Origin: Myxococcales bacterium
GTDB lineage: Bacteria; Myxococcota_A; UBA9042
Assembly: GCA_037441385.1 (NCBI GenBank)
Contig: JBBISH010000056.1
Coordinates: 1-40,008 of the forward strand
Direction of reading: 5' to 3'
Length of the DNA stretch: 40,008 bases
Part shown: positions 1 to 35,735 of the stretch, piece after piece
How positions within the stretch are numbered: the first letter of the stretch is position 1
Layout of the letters: the number at the start of each line of letters is the position of its first letter
The notes under the pieces: model-generated
What the model was told of the DNA's origin: nothing
What the model saw: only the letters and a program-made list of their open reading frames with translations
Databases searched by the model: none
Position numbers and translations under genes: made by a program

Positions 1-87
1 AGGGGTCCCCGCGGTGAGCGAAGCGAGCGAGCCGTGACTCAATTTCACGGCGAGAGCGGGGTCGGCCGAAGGCCGGGGGTGAGGGCT
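1..87. repeat. REP-like palindromic intergenic repeat (partial, at window edge)
   Basis: Bases 1-31 are the near-exact reverse complement of ~35487-35517 (CTCGCTCGCTTCGCTCACCGCGG.GACCCCT). GGGTCGGCCG.AGGCCGGGGGTGAGGGC (~58-86) recurs directly at ~35586-35613. Confidence 0.7.
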
Positions 88-147
88 ATTCGCGCCATCC
101 GACAGCAAATCCATGGCAAGGCGCAGACCAATTCTCAGGAGGATCCC

Positions 148-1269: not shown

Positions 1270-2533
1270 CCAACCTCTGCCAACCGCAGCGCTCCGCGAC
1301 CGCCTGAGCCAACTGCGGATGCAGCTGCTCAGCGCCTACCCGTTCTGGGGCACGCTGCTGTGCGAGGTCGACCTGCTGTGGTCGGCGTCCCTGCCGACGT
1401 TCGCCGCCACCAACGGCGTCGACCGCATCTGGCTGCACCCCGAGCTGTGCGCGCTCTTGGCGCCGCGCCAGCTGGGGTTCGTGGTGCTGCACGAGCTGTA
1501 TCACATCGTGTACGAGACCCTGGGGCGCGAGCAGAACCGGCAGCGCGGCCTGTGGAACCGCGCCAGCGACTACGCCATCAACCGGCAGGTGGCGGCGCTG
1601 GGTCGGCGCGATGGCTACCGCTGGGTGGCCGACTGGCAGGCGCCCGAGATCGAGTTGCCCGGCCTGGGCAGGGTGCAGATCCTCCGCGATGGGCGCTTCG
1701 ACTCCCTGCCGGCCGAGGCGATCTACGTCGTCCTGGGGCGGCAGCCGCAGCAGGCCGTCGCCCAGGGTCCGGCCGTCGAGCTGCCCGACTGCCAAGGCGG
1801 CACGGCCCTTTCGGACCCCGACCACCGCGGCGGTGTCGACGTGCATGTCCCCCTTGTCGGGTCGGCCGAGGCCCAGCAGGCGCGGCGCGATGCGGCCACC
1901 GAGCGGCTGGCCCGCGTGGCGCAGGCGGCCAAAGACCTGGTGCCCGGGCCCTTGCCCCTGGACCTCGACCGTTGGCTCGGCGAGCTGCGGCCCGGTCAGC
2001 AGGACTGGCAGGCCCTCTTGCGGCGCTACTTGTCCGAGGTGGGCGCGGCCGTCGAACGGAGCTGGCAGCGCCCGCACCGCCGCTGGCTGACCCAGGCACC
2101 GGCCGGCGAGACCTGGCTGGTGCCTGGGCCGCTGCCCGAGGCCGACGGCTGCGTGGTGCTGGCCATCGACACCTCGGGCTCGATGCGCGACGGGCACCTG
2201 CAGGCCATCGCCAGCGAGCTGGCCGCGCTGGACGATCGGGTGAGCGAGCTGTGGCTGGTCTGCGCCGACGCCAAGGTGCAGGCGGTGCTGCCGCCCGGCC
2301 AGCTGCGCGGGTTTCTGGCCCAGCGGAAGCTGCCGGGTGGAGGGGGAACGGACCACCGGCCGCTGTTCGAGTGGCTGGCCCGCCAGCCGTTTCGGCCGGA
2401 GGTGGTGCTGTGCTACACGGACCTGCAGACGACGTTGCCCGAGCGCGGGCCCGGATGCCCGGTGCTGTGGCTGGTGCCGAAGGGGGCGCAAGTGTTGGCG
2501 AGGCCTGGGTTTGGCGTGGTGGTGAGGGTGTAG
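1253..2533 (+). CDS. HExxH metallopeptidase-like plus VWA domain protein (DUF2201-like), partner of the AAA ATPase
   Basis: TFAATNG, HELYH, WNRASDYAIN, MIDAS-like AIDTSGSM, GGGGTD and YTD motifs. Start overlaps the end of the ATPase gene. Confidence 0.85.
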   Translation: MPAPPSQPLPTAALRDRLSQLRMQLLSAYPFWGTLLCEVDLLWSASLPTFAATNGVDRIWLHPELCALLAPRQLGFVVLHELYHIVYETLGREQNRQRGLWNRASDYAINRQVAALGRRDGYRWVADWQAPEIELPGLGRVQILRDGRFDSLPAEAIYVVLGRQPQQAVAQGPAVELPDCQGGTALSDPDHRGGVDVHVPLVGSAEAQQARRDAATERLARVAQAAKDLVPGPLPLDLDRWLGELRPGQQDWQALLRRYLSEVGAAVERSWQRPHRRWLTQAPAGETWLVPGPLPEADGCVVLAIDTSGSMRDGHLQAIASELAALDDRVSELWLVCADAKVQAVLPPGQLRGFLAQRKLPGGGGTDHRPLFEWLARQPFRPEVVLCYTDLQTTLPERGPGCPVLWLVPKGAQVLARPGFGVVVRV

Positions 2534-2550
2534 GCGGGCAGGGTGGTGGT

Positions 2551-2574
2551 CTTAGTTGTGGTGGGGGAACTACC
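2551..2574 (-). repeat. 24-bp site copy A (degenerate)
   Basis: Reverse complement reads GGTAGTTCCCCCACCACAACTAAG; lies 17 bp after the VWA gene stop. Confidence 0.85.
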
Positions 2575-2637
2575 AGCGTAGAGGATGGCGAGTAGCGCTG
2601 AACCTGTGAGGGAAACCTGGGCGATGCTGGGCACTTG

Positions 2638-2710
2638 GCCCTCACCCCGCCGCTACGCGGCACCCCTCTCCCAAAGCATTGGGCGAGGGGTATGGCAATG
2701 TTCCCATTGC
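2638..2710. repeat. REP-like palindromic repeat
   Basis: GCCCTCACCCC...CCCCTCTCCCAAAGCATTGGGCGAGGGG hairpins; similar to ~35515-35560. Confidence 0.65.
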
Positions 2711-2767
2711 AGTTTTTGGATCGCAAGGTCATCGCGATTGCGGAGGATTGGTCCAGGGGCTGGCGGC

Positions 2768-2791
2768 CATAGTTGTGGCGGGGGAACTATG
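2768..2791 (-). repeat. 24-bp site copy B (consensus)
   Basis: CATAGTTGTGGCGGGGGAACTATG, the exact reverse complement of 12417-12440. Confidence 0.95.
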
Positions 2792-2861
2792 CCAGCCGCC
2801 GCAGTCCTGGGGTGAGGGTCAGCCTCCAAGAAGATTCAACAAGTAAGGAGAGGATCAAGGA

Positions 2862-3932
2862 ATGCGCGACGAAAGCAACCAAAACCTCAGCTGGTTCCAG
2901 CATCTCGCCGGCTTCGCCGAGGCGGACTACCCCAGCACCCAGGCGTGCCTGGCCATGGACGGGCACGTTTTGCTGGCGGGCGGGCGGCGCTGGCAGGTAG
3001 GGCCCTTTGCCACACCCAGCCTGGCCGAGCTGCGGCAGCAAGTGGCCCAGGTTCAGCAGACGGGCCCGCTGCGACCGCCGATCCGCTGGGCCGACGCGGT
3101 GGTGGGCGATGTGCGGGCCATGCACCGCGACCCGGCCTGGAACGGTGCGGTGTTTCAGGTCGCGTCGCAGTTCAACATGCTGGAGATGACCAGACCGGAG
3201 GTGACGCCCGAGGCCGGCGTGACCCGCTATGCCTCGGACCATACTCAAGGGCCAGCGTGCGCCATTGCCTGTGGGGCCGCGACCTTGTACCGCAACTACC
3301 TGGTGCCAGTAGCGAACGGCGGTGGCATGGGCGGCCAGGGTGACCCGCTCGGCCAGACCCGCGACCGCCAGCTGGACGGGGCCGCGGACCTGCGCGCCGA
3401 GCTGGCCTTCCGGGTGGGGTGCGCGGCCAAGGACCTGTGGCAGATGCGCAACGGCTACCTGTGGCCCAGCCGCGACGGGTTGACGCGGGTGGCCGAGTAT
3501 CTGCGCGGGCTTGCCGAGCCGGAGCGCGACCAGCTGCGGCAGCTGCTGCGGGTCGGCTGGCACGCGGACACGCAGGTGACGGACCGCGGCGCTGCGCCGG
3601 ACCAGCGGGTGGGGCAGGTGTTTTGCTCGGCGCTGCCGGTGGGGTATGTGCGCGGGTTGGCGACGAGTCTGTGGGAGCCGCTGGCGACCCTGGTGCTGGA
3701 GGCCTGCTACGAGGCGACCTTGCTGTGTGCGGTGTTGCGGGCCGAGGGGCAGGGCGCTGGCCTGGGCGCCGGACTGGGCGGGAGTGCGGCCAAGCCGACG
3801 ACGCTGCTGTACACGCATGTTGGCGGCGGGGTGTTTGGCAACGAGGAGCGGTGGATTTTGGCGGCGGTCGAGCGGTTGCGCGGGCTCAAGGTTGCCGGGG
3901 CGGTGGCGGTTCGGCGGGTGAGGTTTGGGTGA
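2862..3932 (+). CDS. Conserved hypothetical protein, probable macrodomain/PARG-like ADP-ribose-processing enzyme
   Basis: FQVASQFNMLEM, YASDHTQGPACAIACG, QVFCSALPVGY, LEACYEATL and C-terminal VGGGVFGN (resembles the macrodomain diphosphate-binding loop). Purine-rich RBS. The function is inferred. Confidence 0.55.
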   Translation: MRDESNQNLSWFQHLAGFAEADYPSTQACLAMDGHVLLAGGRRWQVGPFATPSLAELRQQVAQVQQTGPLRPPIRWADAVVGDVRAMHRDPAWNGAVFQVASQFNMLEMTRPEVTPEAGVTRYASDHTQGPACAIACGAATLYRNYLVPVANGGGMGGQGDPLGQTRDRQLDGAADLRAELAFRVGCAAKDLWQMRNGYLWPSRDGLTRVAEYLRGLAEPERDQLRQLLRVGWHADTQVTDRGAAPDQRVGQVFCSALPVGYVRGLATSLWEPLATLVLEACYEATLLCAVLRAEGQGAGLGAGLGGSAAKPTTLLYTHVGGGVFGNEERWILAAVERLRGLKVAGAVAVRRVRFG

Positions 3933-3966
3933 GCCCGCGTGACAGCCGGAAAGACGGGCAACGGCG

Positions 3967-4284
3967 TCACTTGCCCATCGCGCCCAGCAGCCGATGACCC
4001 TGAAAAACCGTCAGCACTTCGACACTTTCCTTCTGGATGCGGTACACAACACGATACTTGCCGTGGATCAACTCGCGAATCTCCTCCCGGCCAAACTCGG
4101 GCACCTTGCGGCCAAGGCGAGGCTAGTGCGGCAGCCGATCTGCTGCGGCCACCAACTGCTCGACCCACTGCACCGCCGCAACCGGGTCGTCCGCAGCGAT
4201 GAAGTCCGCAATGGCCTCCAGGTCGCGCCCCGCCTGGTCGGTTCAGACCAGAGCAAGAGGTGTCTGTCGTTTGGCTGCCTTCAA
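3967..4284 (-). pseudogene. ParE/RelE-family toxin with two in-frame stop codons
   Basis: One frame reads MKAAKRQTPLALV*TDQAGRDLEAIADFIAADDPVAAVQWVEQLVAAADRLPH*PRLGRKVPEFGREEIRELIHGKYRVVYRIQKESVEVLTVFQGHRLLGAMGK. Stops are TGA at 4245-4243 and TAG at 4125-4123. The TTG start overlaps the antitoxin stop. Confidence 0.85.
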
Positions 4285-4571
4285 GCCGCACCCCTTCCGT
4301 GCCGCTGGCGGATCCGGGTCAGCACGGCCTCAGACGGCTGGACGCGTCCGGCATCCGCATCGGCCAGGCCGGCCTCGACGGCCGCGACAAAGCGGGCCTG
4401 CTCCGTCAAGGCGTCGTACGCGGCAGGCGAGAGGACGACGCCAGCCGCCTTACCGTTTTGGGTGACGACGACAGGCGAGCCGGTCGCGGCGACCTTGCGG
4501 AGCCACTCGGCGATTTGCGACTTGAATTCGCTGACAGGGACGATGTCTTCGGCGGTGTTGATCGTTGGCAC
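4281..4571 (-). CDS. Phd/YefM-family antitoxin
   Basis: DIVPVSEFKSQIAEWLRKV...PVVVTQNGKAAGVVLSPAAYD; GGAG RBS before GTG 4571. Confidence 0.9.
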   Translation of the reverse strand: MPTINTAEDIVPVSEFKSQIAEWLRKVAATGSPVVVTQNGKAAGVVLSPAAYDALTEQARFVAAVEAGLADADAGRVQPSEAVLTRIRQRHGRGAA

Positions 4572-4606
4572 GGCGACTCCGAGGGATGCGGATGGACCCG
4601 AATCCG

Positions 4607-4641
4607 GGTCTAAGTTTAGACCTGGTCGGGGGGCGAGGCAA
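4607..4641 (-). promoter_or_regulatory. Sigma70-like promoter of phd-parE with a palindromic operator
   Basis: Minus strand TTGCCT-17 bp-TAAACT. The palindrome GGTCTAA-GT-TTAGACC (4607-4622) overlaps the -10, as is typical of TA autoregulation. Confidence 0.6.
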
Positions 4642-4672
4642 GCCACGCGTGGCCAACCTAGACCGCTCGACC

Positions 4673-4701
4673 TTGACGTGTGAAGTCAGTTCACGTACAG
4701 T
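4673..4701 (+). promoter_or_regulatory. Sigma70-like promoter of the mqsRA-like operon with an inverted repeat
   Basis: TTGACG-17 bp-TACAGT, with GTGAA-N5-TTCAC (4680-4694) in the spacer. Confidence 0.6.
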
Positions 4702-4716
4702 CGTCACGGAGGCGCC

Positions 4717-5112
4717 GTGAAGGCCAAGAAACCCCATTGGGAACTCGATCGCGTCAAGGCCCTGGCCGCCCAGGGCAAGCTGTTCCTGACCAAGACCAAG
4801 GCCCAGCGGTTCTTCCCGGATGCTGCAAGCGCCGTTGCGACCGCCAAGGCGACGATCGCCGACCTGTCCGAGCGCCAGTTTGCCGAGACGTTGCACCAAG
4901 GTGACGTTTGCGATGTGTACGGCGTCCGTATTGGCGGAGCTGGCTGGTATCTGAAGATTACGATTGACGATTTGCGGGTCGTAGTTTCCCTACACCCGCT
5001 GCAGCGACCGCTGCGGACTAACGCCGGCATGATTGGCGGCGCTTCGGGTGGTGCCAGTTCTGCCGACAAACCTGCCCAGGGGGCTGGAGGCGATAGCGAT
5101 GAAATGCCATAG
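4717..5112 (+). CDS. mqsR: MqsR-like toxin (mRNA interferase)
   Basis: KPHWELDRVKAL...DVY...YLKITI...VVVSLH pattern; GGAGG RBS; immediately upstream of a Zn-ribbon/HTH antitoxin. Confidence 0.65.
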   Translation: MKAKKPHWELDRVKALAAQGKLFLTKTKAQRFFPDAASAVATAKATIADLSERQFAETLHQGDVCDVYGVRIGGAGWYLKITIDDLRVVVSLHPLQRPLRTNAGMIGGASGGASSADKPAQGAGGDSDEMP

Positions 5113-5536
5113 CTGCCATCAAGGTACCGTGGTGCCGCTGGCCAAACCGGGGCGGACGGCGCCGTACAAGACGATTCCCAACCTGCCCGTACCCGCCGAT
5201 CTGGTCATCCCGACGTGCGACCACTGCGGCGAGGAGTGGATGACCCCCGAAGACGCCGCTCGCATCGACGCCGCCATGGAGGCCGTGTATCGAGAGGAGC
5301 TGCTGGCCAGGCTGCGGGCGGTGCTTCCTGAGCCAAGGGATGCTGGCCGGGTCGAGCGCGACTTGGGGTTGTCGCGGGGCTATCTCTCGCGGTTGCGGAA
5401 GGGTGGCCGGCCGCCCAGCGAGGTGTTGTTGGCGGTGTTGGCTTTGGTGCGGGAGGACCAGGGGAATCTGAGGAAAGTTGAGAGATTCTGGCAGATGGGA
5501 ATTCCCTACCCTGACAACGAGATCGGTGCCGAGTAG
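5099..5536 (+). CDS. mqsA: MqsA-like antitoxin (Zn ribbon plus HTH)
   Basis: MKCHSC...CDHCGEE zinc ribbon and ERDLGLSRGYLSRLRKG HTH; overlaps the toxin gene end. Confidence 0.75.
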   Translation: MKCHSCHQGTVVPLAKPGRTAPYKTIPNLPVPADLVIPTCDHCGEEWMTPEDAARIDAAMEAVYREELLARLRAVLPEPRDAGRVERDLGLSRGYLSRLRKGGRPPSEVLLAVLALVREDQGNLRKVERFWQMGIPYPDNEIGAE

Positions 5537-5587
5537 CCCCGCCGGGGCTCGTACCTCTTGCCTGTCTGGGGTACAAATCCTTTCGGT

Positions 5588-8488
5588 TCACCCAGCGCCG
5601 ACCGCGTCATCCGACACGAACTCGTTGCGGTCGACGACAACGGGCGGCAATCCGGGGCCGACGATGGGCACGCCCTGGCGTTCAGCGGCCACAAGGCGAA
5701 GGTTCAGCGCAAGCAGTCCGGATAGGATGTCTTCTTTCTTCGTCCAACCGTAGGCCTTGCGCACAGCGTCGTCGAGCTTGAGCTGCAATTCGCTTACCGG
5801 ATTCGCCGGCGTGGTCTCGACGAGCCGATACAGCTCCCGTAGCGAGAGCCCATCACGCGCCATGATTTCACGGCGCTTCAGTCGCAGTGATCGGGCCGCT
5901 TCCGCCACCGCGCGAATTTGCGCCAGGCTTGGGGTCTGCGGCCAAGGAAAGGAATCGAAGACGGTGTCGGAGGTGTAGCGCCAATCACCTTTGAGAGTTG
6001 AGCACTTCGCTCTGAACCACTCGCAGTGAATGACGGACTGAAGAACGCCGAATGAGTAGTCATCGTCGATGGGAAAGACCTGGAGGGCGTCATTGGGGTG
6101 GACACGGGCGGCGACGAACTCGAATATAGGGCGCTTCGTCACCCTCGAACATGCGATGTAGCGACAAGTCGAATCCAACTTGGCCATAAGCTCCGCACGC
6201 TCGTACGTGAGCCGCCACCAACTCCGGAGGAAGTTCGCGTGATGGTGATTCACGCGTGCATTCGGCTGGGCCGCCAGGGTTGCTTCGTTCTTTTCCGCTT
6301 CTGCTCGGGCCTTTGCATCGCGGTCGGGAAAAACCGTCGATTTGACGACGCGGAATACCTCGTCATAGCGCGCGGCCTCGAACACATCCCGGTTGCGGAA
6401 GTCAATTACGTATCGCGTCGGCAGCGAGTCCTTCTGGCCCAGCAACTCGTCGCCGGTCAGGAATGGGAACACAACCTGAGCGTAGCGCGGGTCTTTCGCC
6501 AGCAGCGCCTCGGCGGGCGCCCGGTCGAGAAGGAACCCCGTGTGACCATGGGTCTGCCCCTGATAGCAGCACCCCGAATCGCGGTTGGCGGCCAGGCTCG
6601 CGGCAGGGGTCACGTCCACGAACCGACTCAAGGCCGGTCCGATGGTCTGCACTTCGTGATACTCAAACGGAGAGTTCGTGCTGTCGCCGTTTTGAAACAC
6701 CAGCCGCTTGAGCCCAGGCTCCTCGCCCTTCACCCAATTCACAATCGACACGTGGACCGCCGCCTCACCGGACCACACTTGGGTGGACACGGCGTCAACA
6801 ATCGTCCCGCCGTTGTTGACGATGTAGTCCAGGCCTCCAACCCGACTATCGTTTTGGCGAATTGTGTTGGTTCCCACCAGCCCGGCGCGCTGGCCGGCCG
6901 CCATGAGCTCGTGCGCCTTGCGGTACCAGTAAACGCAGTAGTCCGCGCGACCAGGCACGTCGGGATATCGCTCGCGCAGGCGCGAGAGGTACGCGTTGTC
7001 CATCTCGCGCTTCATCTTGTTTTTCGACTGATACGGCGGATTGCCCACCACCACGTCGAATGCCGGCCATTCCGTCAGCAACGCGTCCTGACACAAGATG
7101 TTGTCGTCCAGGTTGTCGAGTGGCAGGCCTTGGTCGTAGTCGAGGCCTAGCGCGTTCCACCTCTTGCCGATTCGCTCGTTCCAGGCGTCTGCCGCCAGTT
7201 CTTTGGCCAGCATCATGGTCATCTTGGCAATTTCCACCGCGGTTGGAAGGACGTCCATACCGAAGAACTGCCGCGTCGTCACAACCGATATCCCCAGCGT
7301 CTTGTATCCTGCTCGACTGAAGTTTTCAGCGATTTTCTCAATGATCTGCATCTCCAAATCCTTGAGAACTCGGAACGCTACAAACAAGAAGTTGCCGCAC
7401 CCGCAAGCCGGGTCGAGCACCTTGAATGATCCGATTGCGCTGAGCAGCCCGAGAAGTTCCGTGTAGGTCTTGGCCTTGTTGATCCGAGCTTGCCACGGGA
7501 CAATTATCGACGGGCCAATGACCTTCAAGATGTCGGCCTCGCTGGTGAAGTGTGCACCGAAGGTGTGACGCTCTTGCGCGTCCATCGTTCCTTCAAAAAG
7601 TGCACCAAAAATACCAGGGTTGACGGATCTCCAGTTGCGCGCGCCGGCGCGAGCCAATAGACCAAGGGCGTGTGAATCGAGTTCAATCGGATCGACCGCG
7701 TTGAACAACCCGCCATTAAAGTACCTGACGTCTTTGAACCGCCCGGCCTTGGCACGCTCGGGTGATGCCATCTGTCGGAATAGCGCTCCGAGCAGATCGT
7801 AGGAACTGACTCCCGATTGGCACTCGCGGACGAGTTCTGAGAACAGGCCATTCGGCAGCAGTCCAAAATCCTCGGAAAACAGGGCCAGGACACACTGGAG
7901 AAGGAAGTGTCGTGTGCGGGTTGGATCTTCTTTCCGTTCAAATACCAAGTACTTGAATAGGTCGCCCAAAGTTCCGGCGACATCGCGAGAGATGGCCTCC
8001 ACGTTGTGATGGAAGATCGGAGCGCGGGGTTGTGGCAGAAGGAAGTTCAGGGCGGCAACTCGGTCCGGCAGTTCGCTGAGTGCAACATCGTCCACTTGGG
8101 TCAACTGCCGATAGATCAGTATCCGGTCGAAGTTGCACAGCACGATGTATTCTGGTTTCTGCGCGCCCGGGCCGATCACGACCTCCGGGTTCATCTGAAT
8201 CCAGTAGTCGCGCGCCTGTGGAAAGTGCTTCTTCAGATCCTTCTCAGACCGCTTTTTCATCTCGATGAGCACGCCTGGCCGACCTGGGGCAACCCACAGG
8301 CAGTCGGCGAATTTCGTGCCGCCTTCCGAAAACTTGATGCGAGCTTCCAGTGTTCCGTTCGCCTCGATGATCCCGCCGTGGCCAAAGGCGCGGAACAGCC
8401 GGTCGCAGAACAGCTGCGCCTCGCCCTTCTCGTCACCCTTGAGCTTGGCTGCAAAATCCAGGAAATTCTGAAGTGCTTCGTTGTCCAT
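5588..8488 (-). CDS. Type IIL/IIG restriction-modification enzyme (MmeI/YeeA-like, N6-adenine methyltransferase plus endonuclease)
   Basis: N-terminal D...IEMK nuclease motif, YFNGGLF, GAHFTS, LDPACGCGNF (SAM binding), GNPPY (catalytic) and a C-terminal TRD-like region ending in YTSDTVFDSFPWP. GGAG RBS before ATG 8488. Confidence 0.9.
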   Translation of the reverse strand: MDNEALQNFLDFAAKLKGDEKGEAQLFCDRLFRAFGHGGIIEANGTLEARIKFSEGGTKFADCLWVAPGRPGVLIEMKKRSEKDLKKHFPQARDYWIQMNPEVVIGPGAQKPEYIVLCNFDRILIYRQLTQVDDVALSELPDRVAALNFLLPQPRAPIFHHNVEAISRDVAGTLGDLFKYLVFERKEDPTRTRHFLLQCVLALFSEDFGLLPNGLFSELVRECQSGVSSYDLLGALFRQMASPERAKAGRFKDVRYFNGGLFNAVDPIELDSHALGLLARAGARNWRSVNPGIFGALFEGTMDAQERHTFGAHFTSEADILKVIGPSIIVPWQARINKAKTYTELLGLLSAIGSFKVLDPACGCGNFLFVAFRVLKDLEMQIIEKIAENFSRAGYKTLGISVVTTRQFFGMDVLPTAVEIAKMTMMLAKELAADAWNERIGKRWNALGLDYDQGLPLDNLDDNILCQDALLTEWPAFDVVVGNPPYQSKNKMKREMDNAYLSRLRERYPDVPGRADYCVYWYRKAHELMAAGQRAGLVGTNTIRQNDSRVGGLDYIVNNGGTIVDAVSTQVWSGEAAVHVSIVNWVKGEEPGLKRLVFQNGDSTNSPFEYHEVQTIGPALSRFVDVTPAASLAANRDSGCCYQGQTHGHTGFLLDRAPAEALLAKDPRYAQVVFPFLTGDELLGQKDSLPTRYVIDFRNRDVFEAARYDEVFRVVKSTVFPDRDAKARAEAEKNEATLAAQPNARVNHHHANFLRSWWRLTYERAELMAKLDSTCRYIACSRVTKRPIFEFVAARVHPNDALQVFPIDDDYSFGVLQSVIHCEWFRAKCSTLKGDWRYTSDTVFDSFPWPQTPSLAQIRAVAEAARSLRLKRREIMARDGLSLRELYRLVETTPANPVSELQLKLDDAVRKAYGWTKKEDILSGLLALNLRLVAAERQGVPIVGPGLPPVVVDRNEFVSDDAVGAG

Positions 8489-8543
8489 TCTTGGCGACTC
8501 CATGTTGGCATGGCTGGTTTTGTAGGCGCAGTGGGAGCCACGC

Positions 8544-8570
8544 AGGTTGCTGCCGAGCAACCTTTGTCAA
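8544..8570 (-). promoter_or_regulatory. Putative promoter/operator of the RM gene
   Basis: TTGACA on the minus strand (8570-8565) followed by the palindrome AGGTTGCT-GCCG-AGCAACCT (8544-8563). Confidence 0.45.
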
Positions 8571-8924
8571 GCTTGGTGGCCGGACACGGTGCAGTTCCTG
8601 TAGCAAGTAGGGCCGCGACACTCTTTGAACCAATTTTGAATCCGGATCCTCCGGCCTCAAGAAGTCACGGTGTTCCGTACGGCAGTCTCCAGGGCACCCG
8701 CCACGACCATAGCAGCCTGCCGCCGAAGCGTCTAGCCGCGCACCAATGGCCCAGACGTAGCGGCAAACGGGGCTTGCCTGCCTGTTGACCCCGGCTGAGT
8801 GCGTGAAGGTAGAACCGTGCAGCTCTCTTTTGGCCATGGCTGCCGTCGACTATGCTTCGCGGGACGGCCAGGTCCCACCGACCGGCAACCGAAACTGACA
8901 AGCAGACCCTAGGCTGAGGACACC

Positions 8925-9599
8925 ATGTCACACTTGGTCACACCCCCGAAATCTCCGATACCGCGTGCCGACCTGCACGCCGAACTTGAGCTTGCGCACA
9001 ACTACCTGGCAGAATGCGCAAAGCGAACGCTGCAGTCCCTCCCCGAAATACCCGTGAGGTCATGGGGCAGCCAGATGAAGCGCACGTACGTCCAACTGAC
9101 CGCGGACCGCCCAAAGCACGTCGTCCAGGATCGGCATGAGCACAGCCTGACCGAGATCATGAACCAGTGCGCCACGCTCGAGCGCCTCATCGACGCCCTG
9201 ACGTGGGCCAGCATCCGTGCCAGCGGCCTTGACCACTACTACGTGACGGCCTGCAATCCAACTACCAGCAGCACGGGCCACGACCTGGAGTTGCGGGACG
9301 AAGCTGGAAACGTCGCGCTGTTCGAGGTCTCGGACGTTGCGAGCACTAGCGACGGCAACCAAAAGGAGCGAAAGGACCTGCAATCGCTCGGCTGCATCAA
9401 CAAGGACGGCACTCTCAACGGGGATTGGCCGACCGGTCGCCGCTTTCTTGTTGTTTCATCCGAGTTCGCCGAGCGCCTGGAGGGACTTGGGCGGGCCGTG
9501 TGCAAATACGTTAGGTATACCGAGGTCTTCAGGGGCGCCGGGGCCCAGGGTGGAACCGTAGTTCTGGAGGTGAAGCCGCGAGAACCGCCGCGCCCATAG
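8925..9599 (+). CDS. Hypothetical protein, possible PD-(D/E)xK-like nuclease
   Basis: GAGGA RBS. GHDLELRDEAGNVALFEVSD resembles a D-x(n)-E-x-(K/S) core. The stop codon lies inside site C. Confidence 0.6.
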   Translation: MSHLVTPPKSPIPRADLHAELELAHNYLAECAKRTLQSLPEIPVRSWGSQMKRTYVQLTADRPKHVVQDRHEHSLTEIMNQCATLERLIDALTWASIRASGLDHYYVTACNPTTSSTGHDLELRDEAGNVALFEVSDVASTSDGNQKERKDLQSLGCINKDGTLNGDWPTGRRFLVVSSEFAERLEGLGRAVCKYVRYTEVFRGAGAQGGTVVLEVKPREPPRP

Positions 9600-9618
9600 T
9601 TCCCCCGCCACAACTAAC
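9595..9618 (+). repeat. 24-bp site copy C
   Basis: CATAGTTCCCCCGCCACAACTAAC; 27 bp identical to copy E when the upstream GCGCC is included. Confidence 0.95.
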
Positions 9619-9650
9619 GCACCGTGCCCGCGAATCACCCGGGCCGGACC

Positions 9651-11339
9651 TCAATCGTCATCCTCGCTGTACGTGGCAGCCGCGCGGTCCCGACGGCGCT
9701 TGGCGACCGACGAGCTCCCTTCGAGCCACCGCCGCTCGAACCAGCGAACGAGCAGCATGACGTCGCCACCGTACCACGCGCGATACTCGTGGCGTTCGCT
9801 GCCGGAACCCGACCCGTCCGTGCCTCGCTCGAACATGAACTCGCCGACCGCGCGAAACTCGCACGCCGAGCCCAACATCGGCGCCTGCCGCACCTGGAGC
9901 AGGTTGCCGGCACCAAGGTCGAACACGTAGTCCGGTTTCGCCGAGTCGCGCGGACCGATAAGGACCGGCGCATCGTGCGCCATCTGCAAGGCGCGCAGCA
10001 GCTCGATGCCCAGCTCCGTGGCACGTGCGCCATGGGTGAGCAACTGCCGGAGTTCGCTGCGACACTGGGCCTCTTGGTCGTCGTTCATGCGGTACACGCT
10101 GGGGCATGGCGCTACCAGCGCGTGGCGGGTTGGCTCGAAGGCGGAGCAGAATTCGTTCAGGCGATACCCGCGATTTACAGCGTTGACGCCTGACTCCCGG
10201 CAGGTCTTGGCGTGCCCCTTCAGCCAGGCCTTTGCCGTTGCGGGATCGAGGGCACTTGTTGACCCCGAATTCCACCCTCGGTGATTGCCGTCACCGTCGA
10301 AGGTAACGGCCTCGGTAAGGGCGCGCATGTCAGGGTGGTGGTCGTCGGCCAGGATCTTTTCGAGGCACCACGGGTCGGCGAGTTGCGGCGCCAGTCTCGC
10401 GAGCACAGCCAGCCACGGTGCCTGATGTGCGACGTGGTAGGGGGCAACGAAGCTGCGAAATTCGGCCGCCAGTTCCCCCCAAGCGTAAAGTCTGCCATTC
10501 CGGTCCCAAATCCAAGTGCACTTGGGCTTGTCGGGAAGCTCGCTGTAGTCAATCCTCCCTTGGCTGACAATGGAGTACAGCGACCTTGTTTCGTAACGGT
10601 TCCCGTCCCAGTAGCCGAGGTACATCGCTACTTCGTACAGCGACAAGTCCGGCACCTCGCCTTGCTCGATTTGGTGCTCGACTCGGGCTCTCGTGTCTCC
10701 CGACAGTAAAGCCAACTTCGCGCTGTCTGGTTTCTCGATCGGAATGCGCACCCGGCCGGCCTCGTCAAAGAGCCGGGGCGGTGGCGGCGGCGGCAGCGGG
10801 TACAAGTCCTCATGACCGACCACCTGCCAACCGCGGGGTACCTTGACAAGAGTCGTTGCGGCGACTTTGGCGCCCTTGAAAAACGCAAGGTCCGCTGGAC
10901 TCGCGAGCACGACCACTGCGCTCTTGTGCTCTTGGGCGTGGTCGCGCAACGCGTCCAGCACGTCTGGCGTTGCCTTGACGACCACGCACGTGAATAGCCG
11001 CTGGGCATGCTTGGCACGCCCATCCAGGAACGCGATCGCATCCGCACCGAGCGCTGGGTCCAAGACGAGCACCGTTTGCTCGGCCAGCCGCGACAGGTCA
11101 TCGACCTCGACCCCCAGCGCCGCGGCGAGTGCCTGCTTGCGGCACGCGTGGTGGCTGTCGAAGAAGAAGTCGCGGCCCTCCCGCTTGCCGTTGAGTAGCT
11201 TGCTCACCTTGGCCGTCAGCGTGCTGAATTCGACGGCACTGTCGGCATCGCGCAGGGACTTGTCCAGCACTACAGCAAGCTCCTTCTGTGCGCCTTGGTT
11301 CTTCTTGACCTTCGCCTTGATGAAATCGTGCAGTAGCAT
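9651..11339 (-). CDS. Hypothetical protein (~562 aa) with a possible N-terminal XRE-like HTH
   Basis: GGAGG RBS before ATG 11339. QKELA...VSKLLNGKR...ALAAALGV resembles an XRE HTH. Proline-rich linker; the rest is unrecognised. Confidence 0.65.
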   Translation of the reverse strand: MLLHDFIKAKVKKNQGAQKELAVVLDKSLRDADSAVEFSTLTAKVSKLLNGKREGRDFFFDSHHACRKQALAAALGVEVDDLSRLAEQTVLVLDPALGADAIAFLDGRAKHAQRLFTCVVVKATPDVLDALRDHAQEHKSAVVVLASPADLAFFKGAKVAATTLVKVPRGWQVVGHEDLYPLPPPPPPRLFDEAGRVRIPIEKPDSAKLALLSGDTRARVEHQIEQGEVPDLSLYEVAMYLGYWDGNRYETRSLYSIVSQGRIDYSELPDKPKCTWIWDRNGRLYAWGELAAEFRSFVAPYHVAHQAPWLAVLARLAPQLADPWCLEKILADDHHPDMRALTEAVTFDGDGNHRGWNSGSTSALDPATAKAWLKGHAKTCRESGVNAVNRGYRLNEFCSAFEPTRHALVAPCPSVYRMNDDQEAQCRSELRQLLTHGARATELGIELLRALQMAHDAPVLIGPRDSAKPDYVFDLGAGNLLQVRQAPMLGSACEFRAVGEFMFERGTDGSGSGSERHEYRAWYGGDVMLLVRWFERRWLEGSSSVAKRRRDRAAATYSEDDD

Positions 11340-11375
11340 CGGTACCTCCATGGACGCAATTTGCCATCCCTGCGC

Positions 11376-11416
11376 TTGCTGGCAATAGCATAGGAGGCGA
11401 AAAAAGTTGCCAGCAA
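11376..11416 (-). promoter_or_regulatory. Paired inverted operator-like boxes upstream of the HTH gene
   Basis: TTGCTGGCAA (11376-11385) and its reverse complement TTGCCAGCAA (11407-11416) flank a minus-strand TATGCT -10-like hexamer. Confidence 0.45.
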
Positions 11417-11455
11417 TTTTAGACAGCGCGGTCAGGCGACGCTGGACCCCAAGCC

Positions 11456-11479
11456 AATTGTTCCCCCGCCACAACTATT
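11456..11479 (+). repeat. 24-bp site copy D
   Basis: AATTGTTCCCCCGCCACAACTATT; the outermost arm pair is A...T rather than C...G. Confidence 0.9.
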
Positions 11480-11637
11480 CTCCATCGGTCCACAACGATG
11501 CAGGCAAGCGACGGCTGCCCCTCCTCGACGACAGCGTCGACGTGTATCGGGAAGCCGACCTCGACCGCCTGCGCAATGTGTCGGACGAGGTTGGCTTCTT
11601 GGACCCGCAGTCCGCGGCGGACGTGCTGGCGCCTTGA
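11480..11637 (+). pseudogene. Possible C-terminal gene remnant beginning at site D
   Basis: Frame reads ...PSVHNDAGKRRLPLLDDSVDVYREADLDRLRNVSDEVGFLDPQSAADVLAP* with coding-like codon use but no convincing start or RBS. Confidence 0.3.
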
Positions 11638-11774
11638 AACCTATTGCCGCATCATCAAAAAGTCTCAGCAATGTTCACGAAGAAGGCTGGCGCCAGTGAC
11701 CCACCCTTCCGCACCCTGCCCAAGACTGCTACCCTGTGCGTGGGCAGGCCGGTGCCTGCGCAACACCTGTAGCC

Positions 11775-12005
11775 ATGGGAAACGCCCTCAAAGCCGAAGA
11801 CCTCCTACCACTGGCTGCCCGCCTGTCCGCGCGCGAGCGGCGGCGCCTGGCTACTCGCCTGTTGGCGTTGCCTACGCCGGCGACGCCCAATTCGGATGCG
11901 GAACGCTACCGTGACCACCCGCCAACCAGCGACGAGTCTATGGCGACCGATGCAGGTGTCGCGTTTGACCCCCTCGGCTGGGATGAGTTCTATGCGACGC
12001 GGTGA
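11775..12005 (+). CDS. Putative antitoxin of the MazF-like toxin
   Basis: 76 aa with an acidic C-terminus (FDPLGWDEFY); overlaps the toxin start. Confidence 0.65.
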   Translation: MGNALKAEDLLPLAARLSARERRRLATRLLALPTPATPNSDAERYRDHPPTSDESMATDAGVAFDPLGWDEFYATR

Positions 12006-12303
12006 AATTCGCCTCTGTCGGTTCGCACTGCCGGACAAACGGCGCCCCGTGCTACTGCTGACCCGGCAGGACGTGATAGGGCAATTGCGCGAGGTCATCG
12101 TGGCGCCCATCACGCGGACCGTGCGCGGCTTGGCGAGCGAGGTCGTTCTCACGGGCGCGGACGGAATGCCCACGACCTGCGCCATCAACTTCGACCACCT
12201 CGGCGTGGTGCGCAAGGAAGACTTGGGAGCCGTGGTCGCTGCACTGCCTCACGACCGCTGGCGCGAGGTCGAGCAGGCCTTGCTGATTGCGTGCGGTTTC
12301 TAG
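11992..12303 (+). CDS. mazF: PemK/MazF-family toxin
   Basis: MRRGEI...DKRRPVLLLTR...VIVAPIT...AINFDHL signature. Confidence 0.9.
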   Translation: MRRGEIRLCRFALPDKRRPVLLLTRQDVIGQLREVIVAPITRTVRGLASEVVLTGADGMPTTCAINFDHLGVVRKEDLGAVVAALPHDRWREVEQALLIACGF

Positions 12304-12416
12304 CCCCAACCCCAGGGTAGTGCATAGAAGTCTGGCCGATTCCTAGTGGCTGTACTGGGGGCCAGGGACACCGGCCGGGCCTGAACTGGGTGGGCTGCCG
12401 GGCGACGTCCTGCGCC

Positions 12417-12440
12417 CATAGTTCCCCCGCCACAACTATG
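12417..12440 (+). repeat. 24-bp site copy E (consensus)
   Basis: CATAGTTCCCCCGCCACAACTATG. Confidence 0.95.
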
Positions 12441-12544
12441 ACCTAGCCGCAACAGGCACCGTTGACGCCCTGTCTTGACAGCCCCTGGCCGACAGGCAAA
12501 CTCCGACCTATCGGCCTTCCATCGCCGACCGGAGCCACCGCCAC

Positions 12545-13201
12545 ATGCACGACCTCGCCCCGCAAGTCACCCTGCACCGCACCCTCGACGACCGCTGCCA
12601 GGCCTTCCTGGACCGCGCCGAGCAGATCCGCAAGAACCACACCATCGCCGCAGTGCTAGAGCTGGGCGAAGCGGCGGTGCGCGAGTTCTACGACGGCGAC
12701 GTCAGCCGCTCGTACCTGCGCGGTCAGGCCGTCGAGGAGCCCCTGGCGGCCCTGGTCGAGCGCCACGCCCAGCGCATGGCGTACGTGGGCCTGACGATCG
12801 ACCAAGTCAGGTCGGCGATTCGAGCTTGGGACGTCAACCGCCAGCTGCCGCCCACTTCGCAGGGCCAGCTGGGATCGAGCCAGCTGCGGGCGCTGGCCGC
12901 GATTCCGTCGTCGGCCGACCGCGCGGCGCTGGCCAACCAGGCGGTGGACGAGCGCTGGACCAGCCACGAGACCGAGGCGCAGGTCGCGACTTTCCGCCAA
13001 ACCAGCGGGCTCGCCGGCAAGGGCGGCCGCAAACCCACCGCCGCCGAGGTCAAGGCCAGCAGCGCCGCTGTGCGCGAGCTGGGCCGGTTGGGCGAGCCAA
13101 AGGGCGTAGATGGGATGAGCCTGGCGACGCGGGTGCAGCTGCGCCAAGACCTGCAGAAGCTGGTGCATCAGGCGCAGGCGTGGCTGCGCGAGCTGGCGTA
13201 G
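12545..13201 (+). CDS. Hypothetical helical protein, weakly DUF1016-N (YhcG-N)-like
   Basis: GGAG RBS and an upstream TTGACA (12475-12480). LGSSQLRALA...QAVDERWTSHETEAQV resembles the DUF1016-N pattern; no nuclease domain follows. Confidence 0.6.
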   Translation: MHDLAPQVTLHRTLDDRCQAFLDRAEQIRKNHTIAAVLELGEAAVREFYDGDVSRSYLRGQAVEEPLAALVERHAQRMAYVGLTIDQVRSAIRAWDVNRQLPPTSQGQLGSSQLRALAAIPSSADRAALANQAVDERWTSHETEAQVATFRQTSGLAGKGGRKPTAAEVKASSAAVRELGRLGEPKGVDGMSLATRVQLRQDLQKLVHQAQAWLRELA

Positions 13202-13261
13202 CCTGTACGTCGCACCCAAGGTTCGATTTTCAGGTTGCTGGGGCAGGGTGCGGCCCTTGTT

Positions 13262-16200
13262 CTAGTCCACCACCCCGACCCAGTCCCACGCGCCGACGAA
13301 CAGCAGCCCCACCGCCTCGACTTGCCGGCCGGTGGCCTCGACAGCCTGGCGGTAGGCCTGCAGTTGGGCGGCGTACTTCTCTAGATGCGCGGACTTGACC
13401 AAGTGCTCGGCAGAGCTGGCGTCCACCTGGTTGCCGCCCTTCCAATCCACGATCCACCACTTGCCATTGGGCCGCTCGACCAGAAGGTCTACCCGGCCAG
13501 GCAGCACCGCCGCGCCGGCTACGCCCAGGACCGGCAGCTCGGCGTAGCGGCGGGCGCCGGGCTCGGTCAGCACGTGGTAAATCCCGGGCTGGGCGGTGGC
13601 CAGGTTCTGGCCCAACTCGAGCAGGTACTTCTCGGTCTCCGCGCCAGCCACGGTGGGCCACGCGGTCAGGAAGGCGGTAGCGTCGGCTGGATTGGGGCTC
13701 CGCTCCAGCCCGTGGCTGGCCATCCAGGCGTGCACCAGGTTGCCGCGGGCGTTGTCGGGCATGTCCCGGACGGCCTTGGGTACGTCCAGGCGCTCGCCTC
13801 CCCGGCGGACCTGCGGCAGGGCGCGCTGGGCAAAGGCTAGGGCGAGCTCCTTGCGCTGCTCGGCGGGGAACAACACCTCGGCCGACGACGGTGACTGGAT
13901 CTGCCAAGCCGGTATCGCCTCGGGCGGCGCGGGCAAGGGCGCGGCCACCTCTACCCAGGCGTTGGCCAATGGGTTCAAGGGCTCGGGCGGCTCTAGGGCC
14001 AGGACCTTGACGCCGGGCAGCTCGTGGTCGGCCCCAGCCCACAACCGCCGCAGCTCCTGGTGGATGCCGCGGCCGTCGCCCAGCGCCAGCGTCACGCTGC
14101 GCCTGGCCCGAGTCACGCCCACGTAGGCGGTGCGCAGCCGCTCTTCCTGCCGGCGCGCTTCGCCAACCGCCTTGGCCAATTGCTTGATGGGATCGCCCTT
14201 GGGGTTCAAGGTCTCGGCCGGGTCCAGCTCCACGCCCTGCAGGATGCGCTCTTGGCCCCCGACGAACACCCGCTCGGCCTCGCCCTTCGCCTCGGGGGTC
14301 ATGCCCGCGTCGACCAGGCACACATGGTCCCACTCCAGACCCTTGGCTTGGAAGATGGTGGTGCAGCTGACCGTGCCCTGGCCGCGCCCGACCTTGACCC
14401 GCGGGCCGTCGTCGGCGTTCCCGTTCTCGTCAAGAACCTGGACGACCGCGTTGGGATCCACGCCCTCGCGCTCGGCGCTGCGGACCCAGTCCAGCGCCAC
14501 TTCCAGGTGCGCAACGGCGTCCTGGCCGTCAGGCGACACCGCCAGCAGCGTGCGCCAGTGCAGCGCCGTGGCAAGGGATTCCACGATGTCGGCGGTGGGC
14601 TCGCGACCGATTCGCCCCACTGCCTCGCGCAGCAGGGGTTGGCAGCGGTCGAACACGCCGCGGTCGCGGTCGTCCAGGGCGCCGTCGGCCAACCGCTCGG
14701 CGAGCAGGCTGTACTCCAACCCCTTGCGGCGAGTGTCGCGAACCCACAGGCAGTCGGTGCCGTTCAGGGTGGCCAGGCCCCCGTCGCTCAGCCCCACCAG
14801 CGGCGTCTTCCATAGCGCGGCCACTGCTTGGCGGTCGCGCGGGTCCCAAAGCGCCTGCACCAGCAGCCGCAGGTCGCGCACGGTGGTGGTCTTGGCCAGC
14901 TCGGTCGAGCCGTCCAAAAAGGCCTTGTCGCGCCCGCCCAGCAGCACCCGCAGGCGATCGCGGGCCGCCTGGGCATTGCGCCAAGTGGCCGCCAGCACCA
15001 CCGCGCTGTCGTGGCGCGTGCCTCCGGCGGACTCGTGCGCCCAGGCGTCCTGCATCCGCTGGGCAAACAGGTCCACCGCCGCCGCCCGCACTTCGCCCGC
15101 GGCGAGTTCGTTGTCCTTTGGCTTGTCGCTGTCCGGGTTCGGCGTGCGCACGGCGATGACGATGGGCGCGGTGCCCAGGCGGTGCGCTTCGCTGAGCTCA
15201 TACTTGGCGGTGTCGGGCGAGCTCTGCACCTGATCGACCGGCTGCAAGCCGGGCAGCTGCGGCGCCATGCTGCCGTCGGCCGTGCCCGAGGTAGCCAGAA
15301 ACAACGCCTTCTGCGCCGCCGCCAGCGCCGGTGTGGGCCGGCGCGCCGTCAGCAGCTCGCGAAGCTGGCCGCCGGCCTGGCGCTGCAGGTCGGCGAACAC
15401 CTCGGGCTCGGCGCCGCGGAACAGGTAGATGCTCTGCCGCACGTCGCCCACGTAGGTGGTCGGCAGCGCCCGGCCGCCGCCCGGCAGCTGGCTCAGGGCC
15501 CGATACAGCCGCGCCTGCCGCGGGTTGGCGTCTTGGGCCTCGTCGACCAGCAGGGCGCCAAAGCGGGTCCGCAGGTGCGGCGGCGGCGACTCGCACAGGG
15601 CGATGGCCGCGTCCAGCAGCAGCTCGTAGTCCAGGGTGTTGCTGCTGGCGCACAGGGCGCGGGCGCGGGCACGGCAGGCGTCGGCCAGCTCAGCGATGGC
15701 GCGGCGCAGGGCATCGGCGCGGGCGATGGCCTCGGGGCTGGTCCACTCGGCAAAGCCGCGGATGGCTTGGGCGACGGGCAGCTGTACGGTGCCCAGGTCG
15801 AGTGCCGGTGACTCCGCCAGCTTGGCCAGGATCAAGTCGGTCAGCTTCGTTGGCTTGCCCTTTGGAAAGGCTTGGTTGGCGACATAGGCAAGCAGCAGGT
15901 GCGGGCCCGGCGCTGCGGCACCCGCGTCCAGCCAGGCCTGCACGGCGGCAAACCTCGCTTTGTCCTTCAGCCTGGCGAGGTTCTCGCGGACCGACGCGAC
16001 CAGTTCCCTCACCACCGATTCGGCCACCGGCAGCAGCCGTTCGGCCACCTCCGCCGCCATCCACAGTTCTTCGCCCGCATCGCGGCGCGCCCACTTCGCT
16101 ACCTGTTCAGTCAGCTCGGCCAAGGTCAGGTCGCGCAAGGCCAACTCGGCGGCCGGGGGCAGGCCGCCCGTCGCCGGTTCGATGACCTCGCGGGCCGCCG

Positions 16201-24139: not shown

Positions 24140-24304
24140 TGCAGGGCGGCAGCGACACTGGCTGCAACAAAACGAAACAATATCCAAAGATTTTGGATTT
24201 GCGGCGGCGGCAAATCGAACTTGCGAGTCCGGTGCCGCTGCTGCTAGGCTGTGATGCTCGTCTGGCGACACTCGCCGCCACGGTCAGCTTGGGGGTGCCT
24301 TTCC

Positions 24305-25759: not shown

Positions 25760-25803
25760 GTCCTCTCCAGCAACTCGGCCACGCGGCCGCGCAAGCGAGC
25801 ATC

Positions 25804-29453: not shown

Positions 29454-29486
29454 GTTCGCCTCCAAGGGCAGCATAGCGCAGCTTGG

Positions 29487-32354
<2,868 letters not shown>

Positions 32355-32431
32355 GGGGCCTCTAAGTGGCAGCGGCGCTGTGCAGTGCCCGCGACAAGGC
32401 CAAGGCAGCTTGAGCGCACAAGAAACAAGGA

Positions 32432-32559
32432 ATACCGGTTCCGTTCGAAGCGGATCGAAAACTCGGGCAATTCTTCGGGCCCGAACCGGGGTCCCCGCCT
32501 GATTCTCGCCAGTTGCTGATCGGGTCCGAAAGGCCGTACCGGTGCGAATCAGGTGGGGT
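32432..32559. repeat. 128-bp structured dispersed repeat or candidate ncRNA, copy 1
   Basis: Ungapped match to 39876-40003 with 15 mismatches by manual count; long stems. Confidence 0.85.
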
Positions 32560-32674
32560 GGGTGTGACGGGCGAGCCCGCTCGCGGGCGAGTATAGGTCA
32601 GCCGCAGTCCGTGGCCAGCGCGTCTGGCGACCCTACGACACGGCTGTGACAGCGCGGTGGCGAGGCACCCGGCG

Positions 32675-35326: not shown

Positions 35327-35429
35327 GGCTGGGACTGTGCGCGGATTGCGCCGAGCGTGCAAGCCTGCCTTACCGGATGGCTACTAGTGCCGTAAGTGCA
35401 GTGGAAACCTGTGCGATCCTTCGCACTTG

Positions 35430-35721: not shown

Positions 35722-35735
35722 CCCGATTCCGTCTC

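Follow-up and report, generated by a model that had tools for sequence, protein, structure and literature searches.

Five directional sites at gene borders in the accessory region of a Myxococcales contig, possible junctions of site-specific recombination

We analysed a stretch of 40,008 nucleotides from an uncultured, high-G+C Myxococcales bacterium (GTDB lineage Bacteria; Myxococcota_A; UBA9042; GenBank assembly GCA_037441385.1, contig JBBISH010000056.1, positions 1 to 40,008 of the forward strand), hereafter called the window. Its accessory part carries five copies, A to E, of a short directional site set among toxin–antitoxin (TA), restriction-modification (RM) and other genes, and from 13262 onward the window encodes addA, addB, fadE, ggt, gcvP, dauA, a phosphopantetheinyl transferase (PPTase) and dnaE2. 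An earlier note, written from the letters of this DNA, had reported the five copies, and all of them were recovered: at 2551 and 2768 on the minus strand (sites A and B) and at 9595, 11456 and 12417 on the plus strand (sites C, D and E). They are spaced 217, 6827, 1861 and 961 bp apart, and their orientation order is - - + + +.

The five copies separate the accessory genes into blocks. Site A (2551–2574, minus strand) lies 17 nt past the stop (2533) of a DUF2201/VWA gene, and site B (2768–2791, minus strand) precedes by 70 nt the start codon of a 356-aa gene (ATG at 2862). The block between B and C holds six genes on both strands, and the TAG stop of the last of them, a 224-aa gene, lies at 9597–9599 inside site C (9595–9618, plus strand). 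The end of site C is 32 nt from the stop of a 562-aa gene on the minus strand, which places this copy between convergent genes, as the earlier note had it. Site D (11456–11479, plus strand) occupies a divergent region: the start of the 562-aa gene is 116 nt away on one side, and the antitoxin candidate of a MazF module 256 nt away on the other. Site E (12417–12440, plus strand) lies between the MazF gene, whose stop is 113 nt before it, and a gene for a 218-aa ParB-domain protein, whose ATG is 104 nt after it. Each of the direct pairs encloses a single module, C-D one of 1.86 kb and D-E one of 0.96 kb, again in agreement with the earlier description.

Comparison of the copies showed a strongly conserved unit. 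Sites B and E are perfect and identical copies of the 24-mer CATAGTT-CCCCCGCCAC-AACTATG, and in inverted orientation E matches B over 26 of 27 nt. Site C reads CATAGTT-core-AACTAAC and site D AATTGTT-core-AACTATT, and the most diverged copy, site A, reads GGTAGTT-CCCCCACCAC-AACTAAG, with a G>A change in the core. Scanning with the 24-mer at up to three mismatches returned B and E as perfect matches, C with two mismatches and D with three, and no match of any kind was obtained in 100 shuffles (0/100). Site A, which differs from the 24-mer at 5 of 24 positions, was recovered solely by the inner 16-mer (one mismatch); a sixth match to this 16-mer, at 32845–32860 with three mismatches, is no more than expected by chance (shuffle mean 0.85). 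The most conserved unit was the 20-mer T[A/T]GTTCCCCC[G/A]CCACAACTA, composed of a T[A/T]GTT arm, a CCCCC[G/A]CCAC core and an AACTA arm, with substitutions at only 2 of 100 positions. Searches of all 40,008 bp for degenerate extra copies, with the 20-mer at up to five mismatches and with the arms alone, returned the same five sites and no others. A half-site scan gave nothing that stood out, and the remaining block borders, the composition break near 3933 among them, showed neither half-sites nor scars. The sequence CACAACGATG at 11491–11500, 12 nt to the right of site D, is a 9/10 copy of the right arm plus the end of the core, and could be a chance occurrence or an accessory half-site.

The architecture of inverted arms around an asymmetric, almost invariant core, as proposed in the earlier note, held on inspection, and the non-palindromic core was as invariant as the arms. 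Arms of 5 bp are common to all five copies and lengthen to 7 bp in B, D and E; the core, with a G+C content of 90%, measures 10 bp, or 8 bp if 8-bp arms carrying one mismatch are counted. B, D and E retain the outer arm pairs, which are broken in A and C; in D, the outermost pair has changed from C-G to A-T, with both sides altered. The left half of C and the right half of E, which are the outer halves of the C to E array, together make up the perfect site of B and E, and of the inner halves three of four are imperfect.

The repeat is one-sided, with some 30–40 nt of weak conservation on its left and a sharp edge on its right. In a MAFFT alignment with 60-nt flanks, full conservation was confined to the 20–24 bp described above. 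The left flanks (the CATAGTT side, 30 nt, in register) shared 117 of 300 pairwise identities (P = 0.0002–0.0004 against 20,000 random 5-tuples; P ~0.001–0.003 against shuffles of each flank), those of the direct copies C, D and E alone shared 44 of 90 (P ≤ 0.0003), and the best pair was C with E (18/30). The right flanks shared 94 of 300 (P = 0.07–0.13, not significant) and were unrelated from the first base outside the site. The weakly conserved left extensions correspond to 9555–9594 for C, 11416–11455 for D and 12377–12416 for E on the plus strand, and to 2575–2614 for A and 2792–2831 for B on the minus strand. At site C, the extension is coding sequence, the family of the 224-aa protein being conserved up to the TVVLEV stretch just before the site.

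We also examined whether the sites fold as single strands. For 64-nt stretches, the folding z values were +0.32, −2.32, −0.27, +0.46 and −0.81 for A to E; four of the five copies thus lack a stable hairpin (z > −1), with B alone having an extended stem, and the consensus fold of the 75-nt units reached −1.8 kcal/mol. Because folding is weak in four of the five copies, a site bound by a protein as double-stranded DNA is likelier than a fold of the repetitive extragenic palindromic (REP) or attC type.

All five copies are intergenic, in line with the gene-boundary placement claimed before, and intergenic DNA makes up 19% of 2534–13261 (P ~2e-4). The earlier note had further reported that no copy occurs in the 27-kb housekeeping part; the absence is correct but weak as evidence, since with 2005 bp of intergenic DNA in the accessory part, 1476 bp in the rest and five of five sites in the former, the confinement is not significant per intergenic base (P = 0.063). 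Counted by region, the sites occupy 4 of 9 accessory intergenic regions against 0 of 6 housekeeping ones (Fisher P = 0.09). The G+C content is 0.72 left of A, 0.71 from B to 3932, 0.61 for 3933–9594, 0.64 between C and D, 0.66 between D and E, and 0.70 from E to 13261. The right composition break coincides with site E, where G+C at third codon positions (GC3) rises from 0.80 to 0.90.

The left end of the window encodes a MoxR-type AAA ATPase (1–1269, plus strand; AAA_5, with bpMoxR below cut-off) and a DUF2201 metallopeptidase/VWA protein (1196–2533, plus strand; DUF2201_N, E 6e-26; DUF2201, E 1e-20), whose genes overlap by 74 nt. Below cut-off, this pair also showed weak similarity to bpMoxR and the IetA/IteA anti-phage ATPases, and judging by sequence it may itself be a conflict system, with a candidate macro/PARG-like protein of 356 aa encoded downstream. 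The adjoining A-B interval had been described as an ORF-less unit and turned out to be a copy of a dispersed repeat that also occurs, with no site, at 35375–35556, between the PPTase gene and the imuA-like and dnaE2 genes. Within the 193 bp of the interval, 2583–2704 is 77–80% identical to 35375–35445 and 35517–35556, and a terminator-like hairpin at 2695–2710 closes it. To judge from its sequence, the interval resembles unremarkable intergenic DNA at the 3' end of the MoxR/DUF2201 operon, flanked by a site on each side. The repeat belongs to a G+C-rich intergenic family (2583–2704, 35375–35622 and 1–95) whose pieces are 77–88% identical and partly inverted; one copy carries a 60-nt insert, and no Rfam match was found for the family.

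The B-C block opens with the 356-aa gene (2862–3932, plus strand), which is host-like in composition (GC3 0.88). Its product had no match in Pfam, NCBIfam, PADLOC or PHROG; an Atlas search related it to unnamed clusters (0.93–0.95) and, as leads only, to MavL-like (0.82) and PARG (0.81) entries, so that a macro/PARG-like hydrolase is a possible identity. The 348 bp that separate this gene from a Phd/YefM antitoxin gene (4281–4550, minus strand; PF02604, E 3e-17) contain only ORFs of non-coding composition. No recognisable toxin partner of the antitoxin was found, the ORF at 4068–4256 on the minus strand being without a family, and the gene may be an orphan antitoxin or the remnant of a decayed pair. 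An MqsR-like toxin (4717–5112, plus strand; PF15723, E 1.7e-7) and an MqsA-like antitoxin (5033–5536, plus strand; PF15731, E 0.004, and TIGR03830, E 2e-5, both below cut-off) come next, followed by an MmeI-type (type IIG) RM enzyme (5588–8560, minus strand) with MmeI_N, MmeI_hel, MmeI_Mtase and MmeI_TRD domains. The latter scored 1221 bits against the PADLOC model REase_MTase_IIG and has the lowest G+C content of the region (0.59). Divergent from it, across a 364-bp spacer, lies the 224-aa gene (8925–9599, plus strand), which belongs to an unnamed family. Of the content that the earlier note had assigned to this block, the RM enzyme stood; the PARG-like assignment is a lead only, the nuclease label was not borne out beyond a lead, and the small plus-strand TA ORFs at 3939–4465 look spurious (GC3 0.42 and 0.60, junk translations).

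Two families of proteins beside the sites have no assigned function. The family of the 224-aa protein comprises 43 proteins listed at E ≤ 1e-3, its own record included, which are named only 'hypothetical protein' and share a strongly conserved signature, NQCAT-ERL and FEVSDVA-DGN-KE-KDL. Its AlphaFold2 model (predicted local distance difference test, pLDDT, 92) gave weak top Foldseek matches that include AdnA, YaeQ and EcoRV, PD-(D/E)xK nucleases among them, which we take as a lead from the model toward a nuclease. The 562-aa gene (9651–11339, minus strand), the sole content of C-D, belongs to an orphan family with 88 representatives at E ≤ 1e-3 among 1.84e9, whose members are ~500–560 aa long; none of 50 members carried a Pfam domain. 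The model of this protein is confident (pLDDT 86) and shows an N-terminal helical bundle, an alpha/beta domain, a poly-proline linker and a C-terminal beta domain. Its best score in the Atlas search, 0.77, provided no lead.

The D-E module consists of an antitoxin candidate (11736–12005, plus strand), proposed by position and having no family match, and a MazF/PemK toxin (within 11896–12303, plus strand; PF02452, E 3.5e-10); the ORF at 11498–11914 looks non-coding. To the right of site E, the 218-aa protein (12545–13201, plus strand) aligns over residues 64–171 with the DNA-binding domain of Caulobacter ParB (6s6h, E 6e-4) and matches PF17762 (HTH_ParB) below cut-off (E 1.3e-3). It lacks the N-terminal ParB/CTPase domain, and no parA gene adjoins it. 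Because only three relatives (64, 53 and 53% identity) were found in 5.8e9 proteins, the gene is accessory despite its host-like GC3 of 0.90.

The remainder of the window contained further features apart from the sites. Four ORFs of the housekeeping part (24251–25759, 25735–27846, 27858–29474 and 35771–36616) had no family. A second repeat of 128 nt with 88% identity occurs at 32432–32559, upstream of gcvP, and at 39876–40003, downstream of dnaE2; it had no Rfam match above chance, and a miniature inverted-repeat transposable element, a small RNA or a leader are candidate identities. At 35688–35760, just upstream of the imuA-like gene and dnaE2, about 5.5 CTGAAC hexamers are followed by a 20-bp palindrome, TACTGAAC-GCAT-GTTCAGTA, which we take to resemble a GAAC-N4-GTTC LexA box and which would presumably fit an SOS-controlled mutagenesis operon.

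To determine how widely the site occurs, we scanned 185,579 species genomes, a collection outside which the source genome lies, with TNGTTCCCCCRCCACAACTA. Four loci were returned, with one match each: in two Nocardia species the match belongs to one shared low-complexity tandem repeat, and in two Bacteroidota metagenome-assembled genomes (MAGs) it falls within what is apparently a common open frame (…LFP[R/H]HNYG…TIGT…). These four single matches are due to chance, and the motif was not found as a repeat in any of the scanned genomes. A 34-nt query around site E gave no match at E ≤ 10 against plasmids and phages, the query being short and the low-complexity filter on. Likewise, megablast of 2400–12600 against plasmids gave no match, nor did tblastn of the 562-aa protein, the 224-aa protein and the ParB-type protein against plasmids, or of the last of these against phages, and 14-mers of the motif were not mentioned in the literature searched. 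With tblastn against plasmids, GcvP stayed below 60% in all 165 matching records and the full-length DnaE2 matches listed reached 47–48%, which was uninformative as to taxon. In the protein search, the closest GcvP cluster, of NCBI source, was 91% identical, and the next clusters, at 74% or less, bear the names of MAGs (Deltaproteobacteria, Planctomycetota and Myxococcota); the organism is from a poorly sampled lineage.

Several ordinary identities of the sites were tried and rejected. None of the six terminator-like sites in the window lies at a copy, which excludes an intrinsic terminator. For a sigma-70 promoter, the single promoter-like match lies elsewhere, no −10 element is conserved, and only B and D point at genes; on the reverse strand, the word GGAAC is, by eye, what we take to be like the −35 element of extracytoplasmic function sigma factors. 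A tRNA or tmRNA fragment serving as attachment target was dismissed because the window contains no tRNA, and a CRISPR-like array because the spacing is irregular. No known RNA family matched at its gathering score, with chance-level matches (E ≤ 1) around A-B and 32300–32700.

We compared the array with known systems of mobile genes. Lox- and FRT-type sites have two inverted binding arms around a short asymmetric spacer; the present arms are shorter, and the core is longer and more G+C-rich, than in textbook examples. Tandem integrative elements, among them accretions of elements without an integrase, have lambda-type attachment cores with short inverted core-binding sites; the cores are direct repeats of ~20–25 bp between the blocks, with extra similarity on the element side only. 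Like tandem integrative elements, the locus has direct repeats (C, D and E) that bracket two blocks, extra similarity on one side and a site that overlaps the 3' end of a gene; unlike them, it has no integrase at either end, its blocks are 1–2 kb long, and two copies are oppositely oriented. As for ParB and KorB sites, several near-identical copies surround a gene for a ParB-type domain, and unlike parS, they have arms separated by a 10-bp non-palindromic core in place of a contiguous palindrome, with a candidate binder that lacks the N-terminal domain.

The earlier claim that the site is neither attC nor dif agreed with our comparison, in which none of the tested attC or dif features was found. 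In an account of integrons, attC is a long imperfect palindrome (R and L boxes, an unpaired spacer and a variable terminal structure) that acts as a folded single strand and is conserved in structure rather than in sequence, and circles of one ORF and its site are excised between adjacent direct sites (PMC4889954). The present site is too short for attC (20–24 bp) and has no fold. A complete integron has an integrase with attI next to the array, and an integrase-less array (CALIN) has at least two attC sites; no integrase family matched among the window ORFs tested, and no attC-like sites were found. Measured against that account, the array resembles integrase-less integron arrays (CALIN) in that its modules are small and each owns a single directional site on one side, in its TA and defence-type cargo and in the absence of a nearby integrase; it differs in that the site is conserved in sequence, the orientation is mixed (two minus, three plus), and the B-C block holds six genes on both strands.

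Sites of the pdif type, according to the site table and accompanying text of a study of Acinetobacter, consist of an 11-bp XerC arm, a 6-bp spacer and an 11-bp XerD arm, with arms such as ATTTCGTATAA / TTATGTTAAAT; the arms are conserved, the spacers are variable, the modules alternate in orientation, and inversions and deletions take place between sites with matching spacers (PMC13141974). A dif or pdif identity was rejected because, in a comparison made by eye with that table, the arms, the core length and the orientation rule all differ. In common with the Acinetobacter modules as portrayed there, whose XerC and XerD are encoded elsewhere, short sites partition TA and accessory genes; unlike pdif, the present sites have an invariant core, arms of 5–7 bp and the order - - + + +, and the locus appears to be chromosomal. 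With REP sequences and REP doublets (REPINs), the sites share their shortness, intergenic position, inverted arms and occurrence in both orientations. REPINs are hairpin-forming palindromes, usually arranged as inverted doublets (PMC3337134). By that description the present sites depart from REPINs, for the only close pair, A-B (217 bp), is direct, there is no stable hairpin, and the window has no gene for a REP-associated tyrosine transposase (RAYT). Overall, by this analysis the array appears most like integrase-less integron arrays and Acinetobacter dif modules in its working, while failing the defining site features of both.

The reading we favour, tentatively and on circumstantial evidence, is that the five sites are junctions of site-specific recombination, to which we assign a probability of roughly 0.38. 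Each site would be a directional unit of ~55–65 bp, with a degenerate left extension of 30–40 bp followed by the invariant 20–24 bp, in which arms of TAGTT/AACTA, reaching up to CATAGTT/AACTATG, enclose the asymmetric core. A recombinase encoded outside the window would bind the arms, strand exchange would occur within or at the edge of the conserved core, and successive events would have joined unrelated blocks (the 562-aa gene, the MazF pair and the P0003-to-P0002 block) at one and the same sequence. Twenty conserved positions beside an unrelated right flank are a pattern that copying by crossover at a fixed site produces, and the invariance of a non-palindromic core, equal to that of the arms, gives the sites polarity. 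The one-sidedness of the repeat suggests that each site belongs to the block on its left, in the way that an integron cassette owns its attC (PMC4889954). The bracketing of single-function modules by the direct repeats C, D and E fits recombination junctions, as does the perfect site formed by the outer halves of the C to E array. Further points in favour are the overlap of site C with the stop of a gene whose conserved C-terminus enters the left extension, the position of E at the GC3 change and the retention of the outermost arm pair in D through a two-sided change. Integrative elements commonly integrate at the 3' ends of genes.

A number of observations weigh against recombination junctions. 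Textbook tyrosine-recombinase sites have arms of 9–13 bp and A+T-rich spacers of 6–8 bp; here the arms are short (5–7 bp) and the core is long (8–10 bp) and 90% G+C, proportions that are atypical. An active simple recombinase would delete the three direct pairs, the A-B interval is a dispersed repeat with a terminator-like hairpin and no cargo, and, counted per intergenic base, the confinement of the sites to the accessory part lacks significance (P = 0.063). The left composition break, at ~3933, has no site, B lying 1.1 kb to its left. No match to recombinase, transposase or HUH families was found in the 20 main ORFs, in 10 further ORFs or in 84 of the 115 stop-to-stop ORFs of at least 65 aa in 2400–13300, the other 31 being 6 at the left edge, 23 inside the span of the RM gene and 2 in addA. 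The NCBIfam, PADLOC and PHROG scans of the window ORFs likewise gave no recombinase, and no xer gene, RAYT gene, Y1_Tnp or Phage_integrase was present among the window ORFs tested. A recombinase hidden in the 562-aa or 224-aa protein was rejected as well: neither model had a fold match in PDB at E ≤ 1e-3 (0 matches each, by Foldseek for the 224-aa protein), and profile and single-sequence searches of PDB returned nothing relevant. By the ORF family scans and the two fold searches, no recognisable recombinase is encoded in cis, in keeping with the trans-acting enzyme supposed in the earlier note.

The sites could instead be a short dispersed repeat particular to this lineage, either REP-like or the solo end of a mobile element that is miniature or non-autonomous; it would be scattered genome-wide, with five copies falling by chance in this gene-poor and repeat-rich stretch and without a role in block movement; we regard this as unlikely, although it is the closest competitor. 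The window does hold at least two other dispersed intergenic repeat families (the 2583–2704 and 32432–32559 types), and the confinement to the accessory part, significant neither per base (P = 0.063) nor by region (Fisher 0.09), would suit such a repeat even though the occupied regions, 4 of 9 accessory against 0 of 6 housekeeping, lean the other way. The end of a mobile element also combines a conserved tip with an abrupt outer border and weaker conservation further in, much as the sites do; no Y1/HUH or other transposase was found among the window ORFs tested, four of the five copies lack a stable hairpin (consensus fold −1.8 kcal/mol), and inverted doublets of the kind described for REPINs (PMC3337134) are absent. 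The source genome lies outside the scanned collection, which leaves room for a private repeat, and more than one copy was found in 0 of the 185,579 genomes despite the GcvP cluster at 91% identity, the inclusion of that relative among them not being established.

Centromere- or operator-like binding sites that mark or regulate the borders of accessory genes, with the 218-aa ParB-domain protein as the likeliest binder among ParB-type or other proteins, form the least probable of the explanations weighed here. The gene adjoining E, 104 nt to its right, encodes a ParB-type helix-turn-helix domain (6s6h, E 6e-4), and a private protein, with three relatives in 5.8e9, could have private sites; by its sequence, this protein could bind them. 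ParB and KorB-type proteins use several near-identical sites scattered over a replicon, and B, D and E do lie upstream of genes and keep their dyad arms, D by a two-sided change. Known ParB-family sites are contiguous palindromes of 13–16 bp, whereas here arms of 5–7 bp are split by a 10-bp asymmetric core conserved like the arms, and one-sided conservation of the flanks is unexpected for a symmetric dimer site. Moreover, A and C follow gene ends, with C between convergent genes, the 218-aa protein lacks the N-terminal ParB domain, and near-identity over 20 positions would seem to exceed by far the information that a regulator site needs. We rank recombination junctions first because of the sharp right edge, the invariant non-palindromic core and the extension on one side only, by which each site is linked to its left-hand block; together these favour copying by crossover at a fixed, directional site over hairpin repeats or binding sites that evolved independently.

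The more specific proposal of the earlier note, a cassette system not described before, would require that each module carry a directional junction of ~60 bp at which a recombinase acting in trans inserts, excises or inverts modules, so that the array stockpiles TA and defence genes; it would operate in the manner of an integron or a set of dif modules, through a site related to neither. Going by the sequence, we find this improbable as it stands and place it below the dispersed repeat in likelihood. To our knowledge, site-specific recombination moves single accessory genes in only a few known systems, of which integrons and the Acinetobacter dif modules are the chief ones. Integrons and dif modules were each recognised from a repeated site. 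If the sites are instead a private REP-like repeat or the sites of a regulator, the finding is an ordinary one. If the proposal is true, the locus would represent a new variety of site-specific recombination modules with the recombinase in trans; the site would provide a sequence tag for finding cassettes in metagenomes, and, as a third type of site that partitions defence and TA genes, here in a lineage known only from metagenomes, it would broaden our view of the assembly of defence islands.

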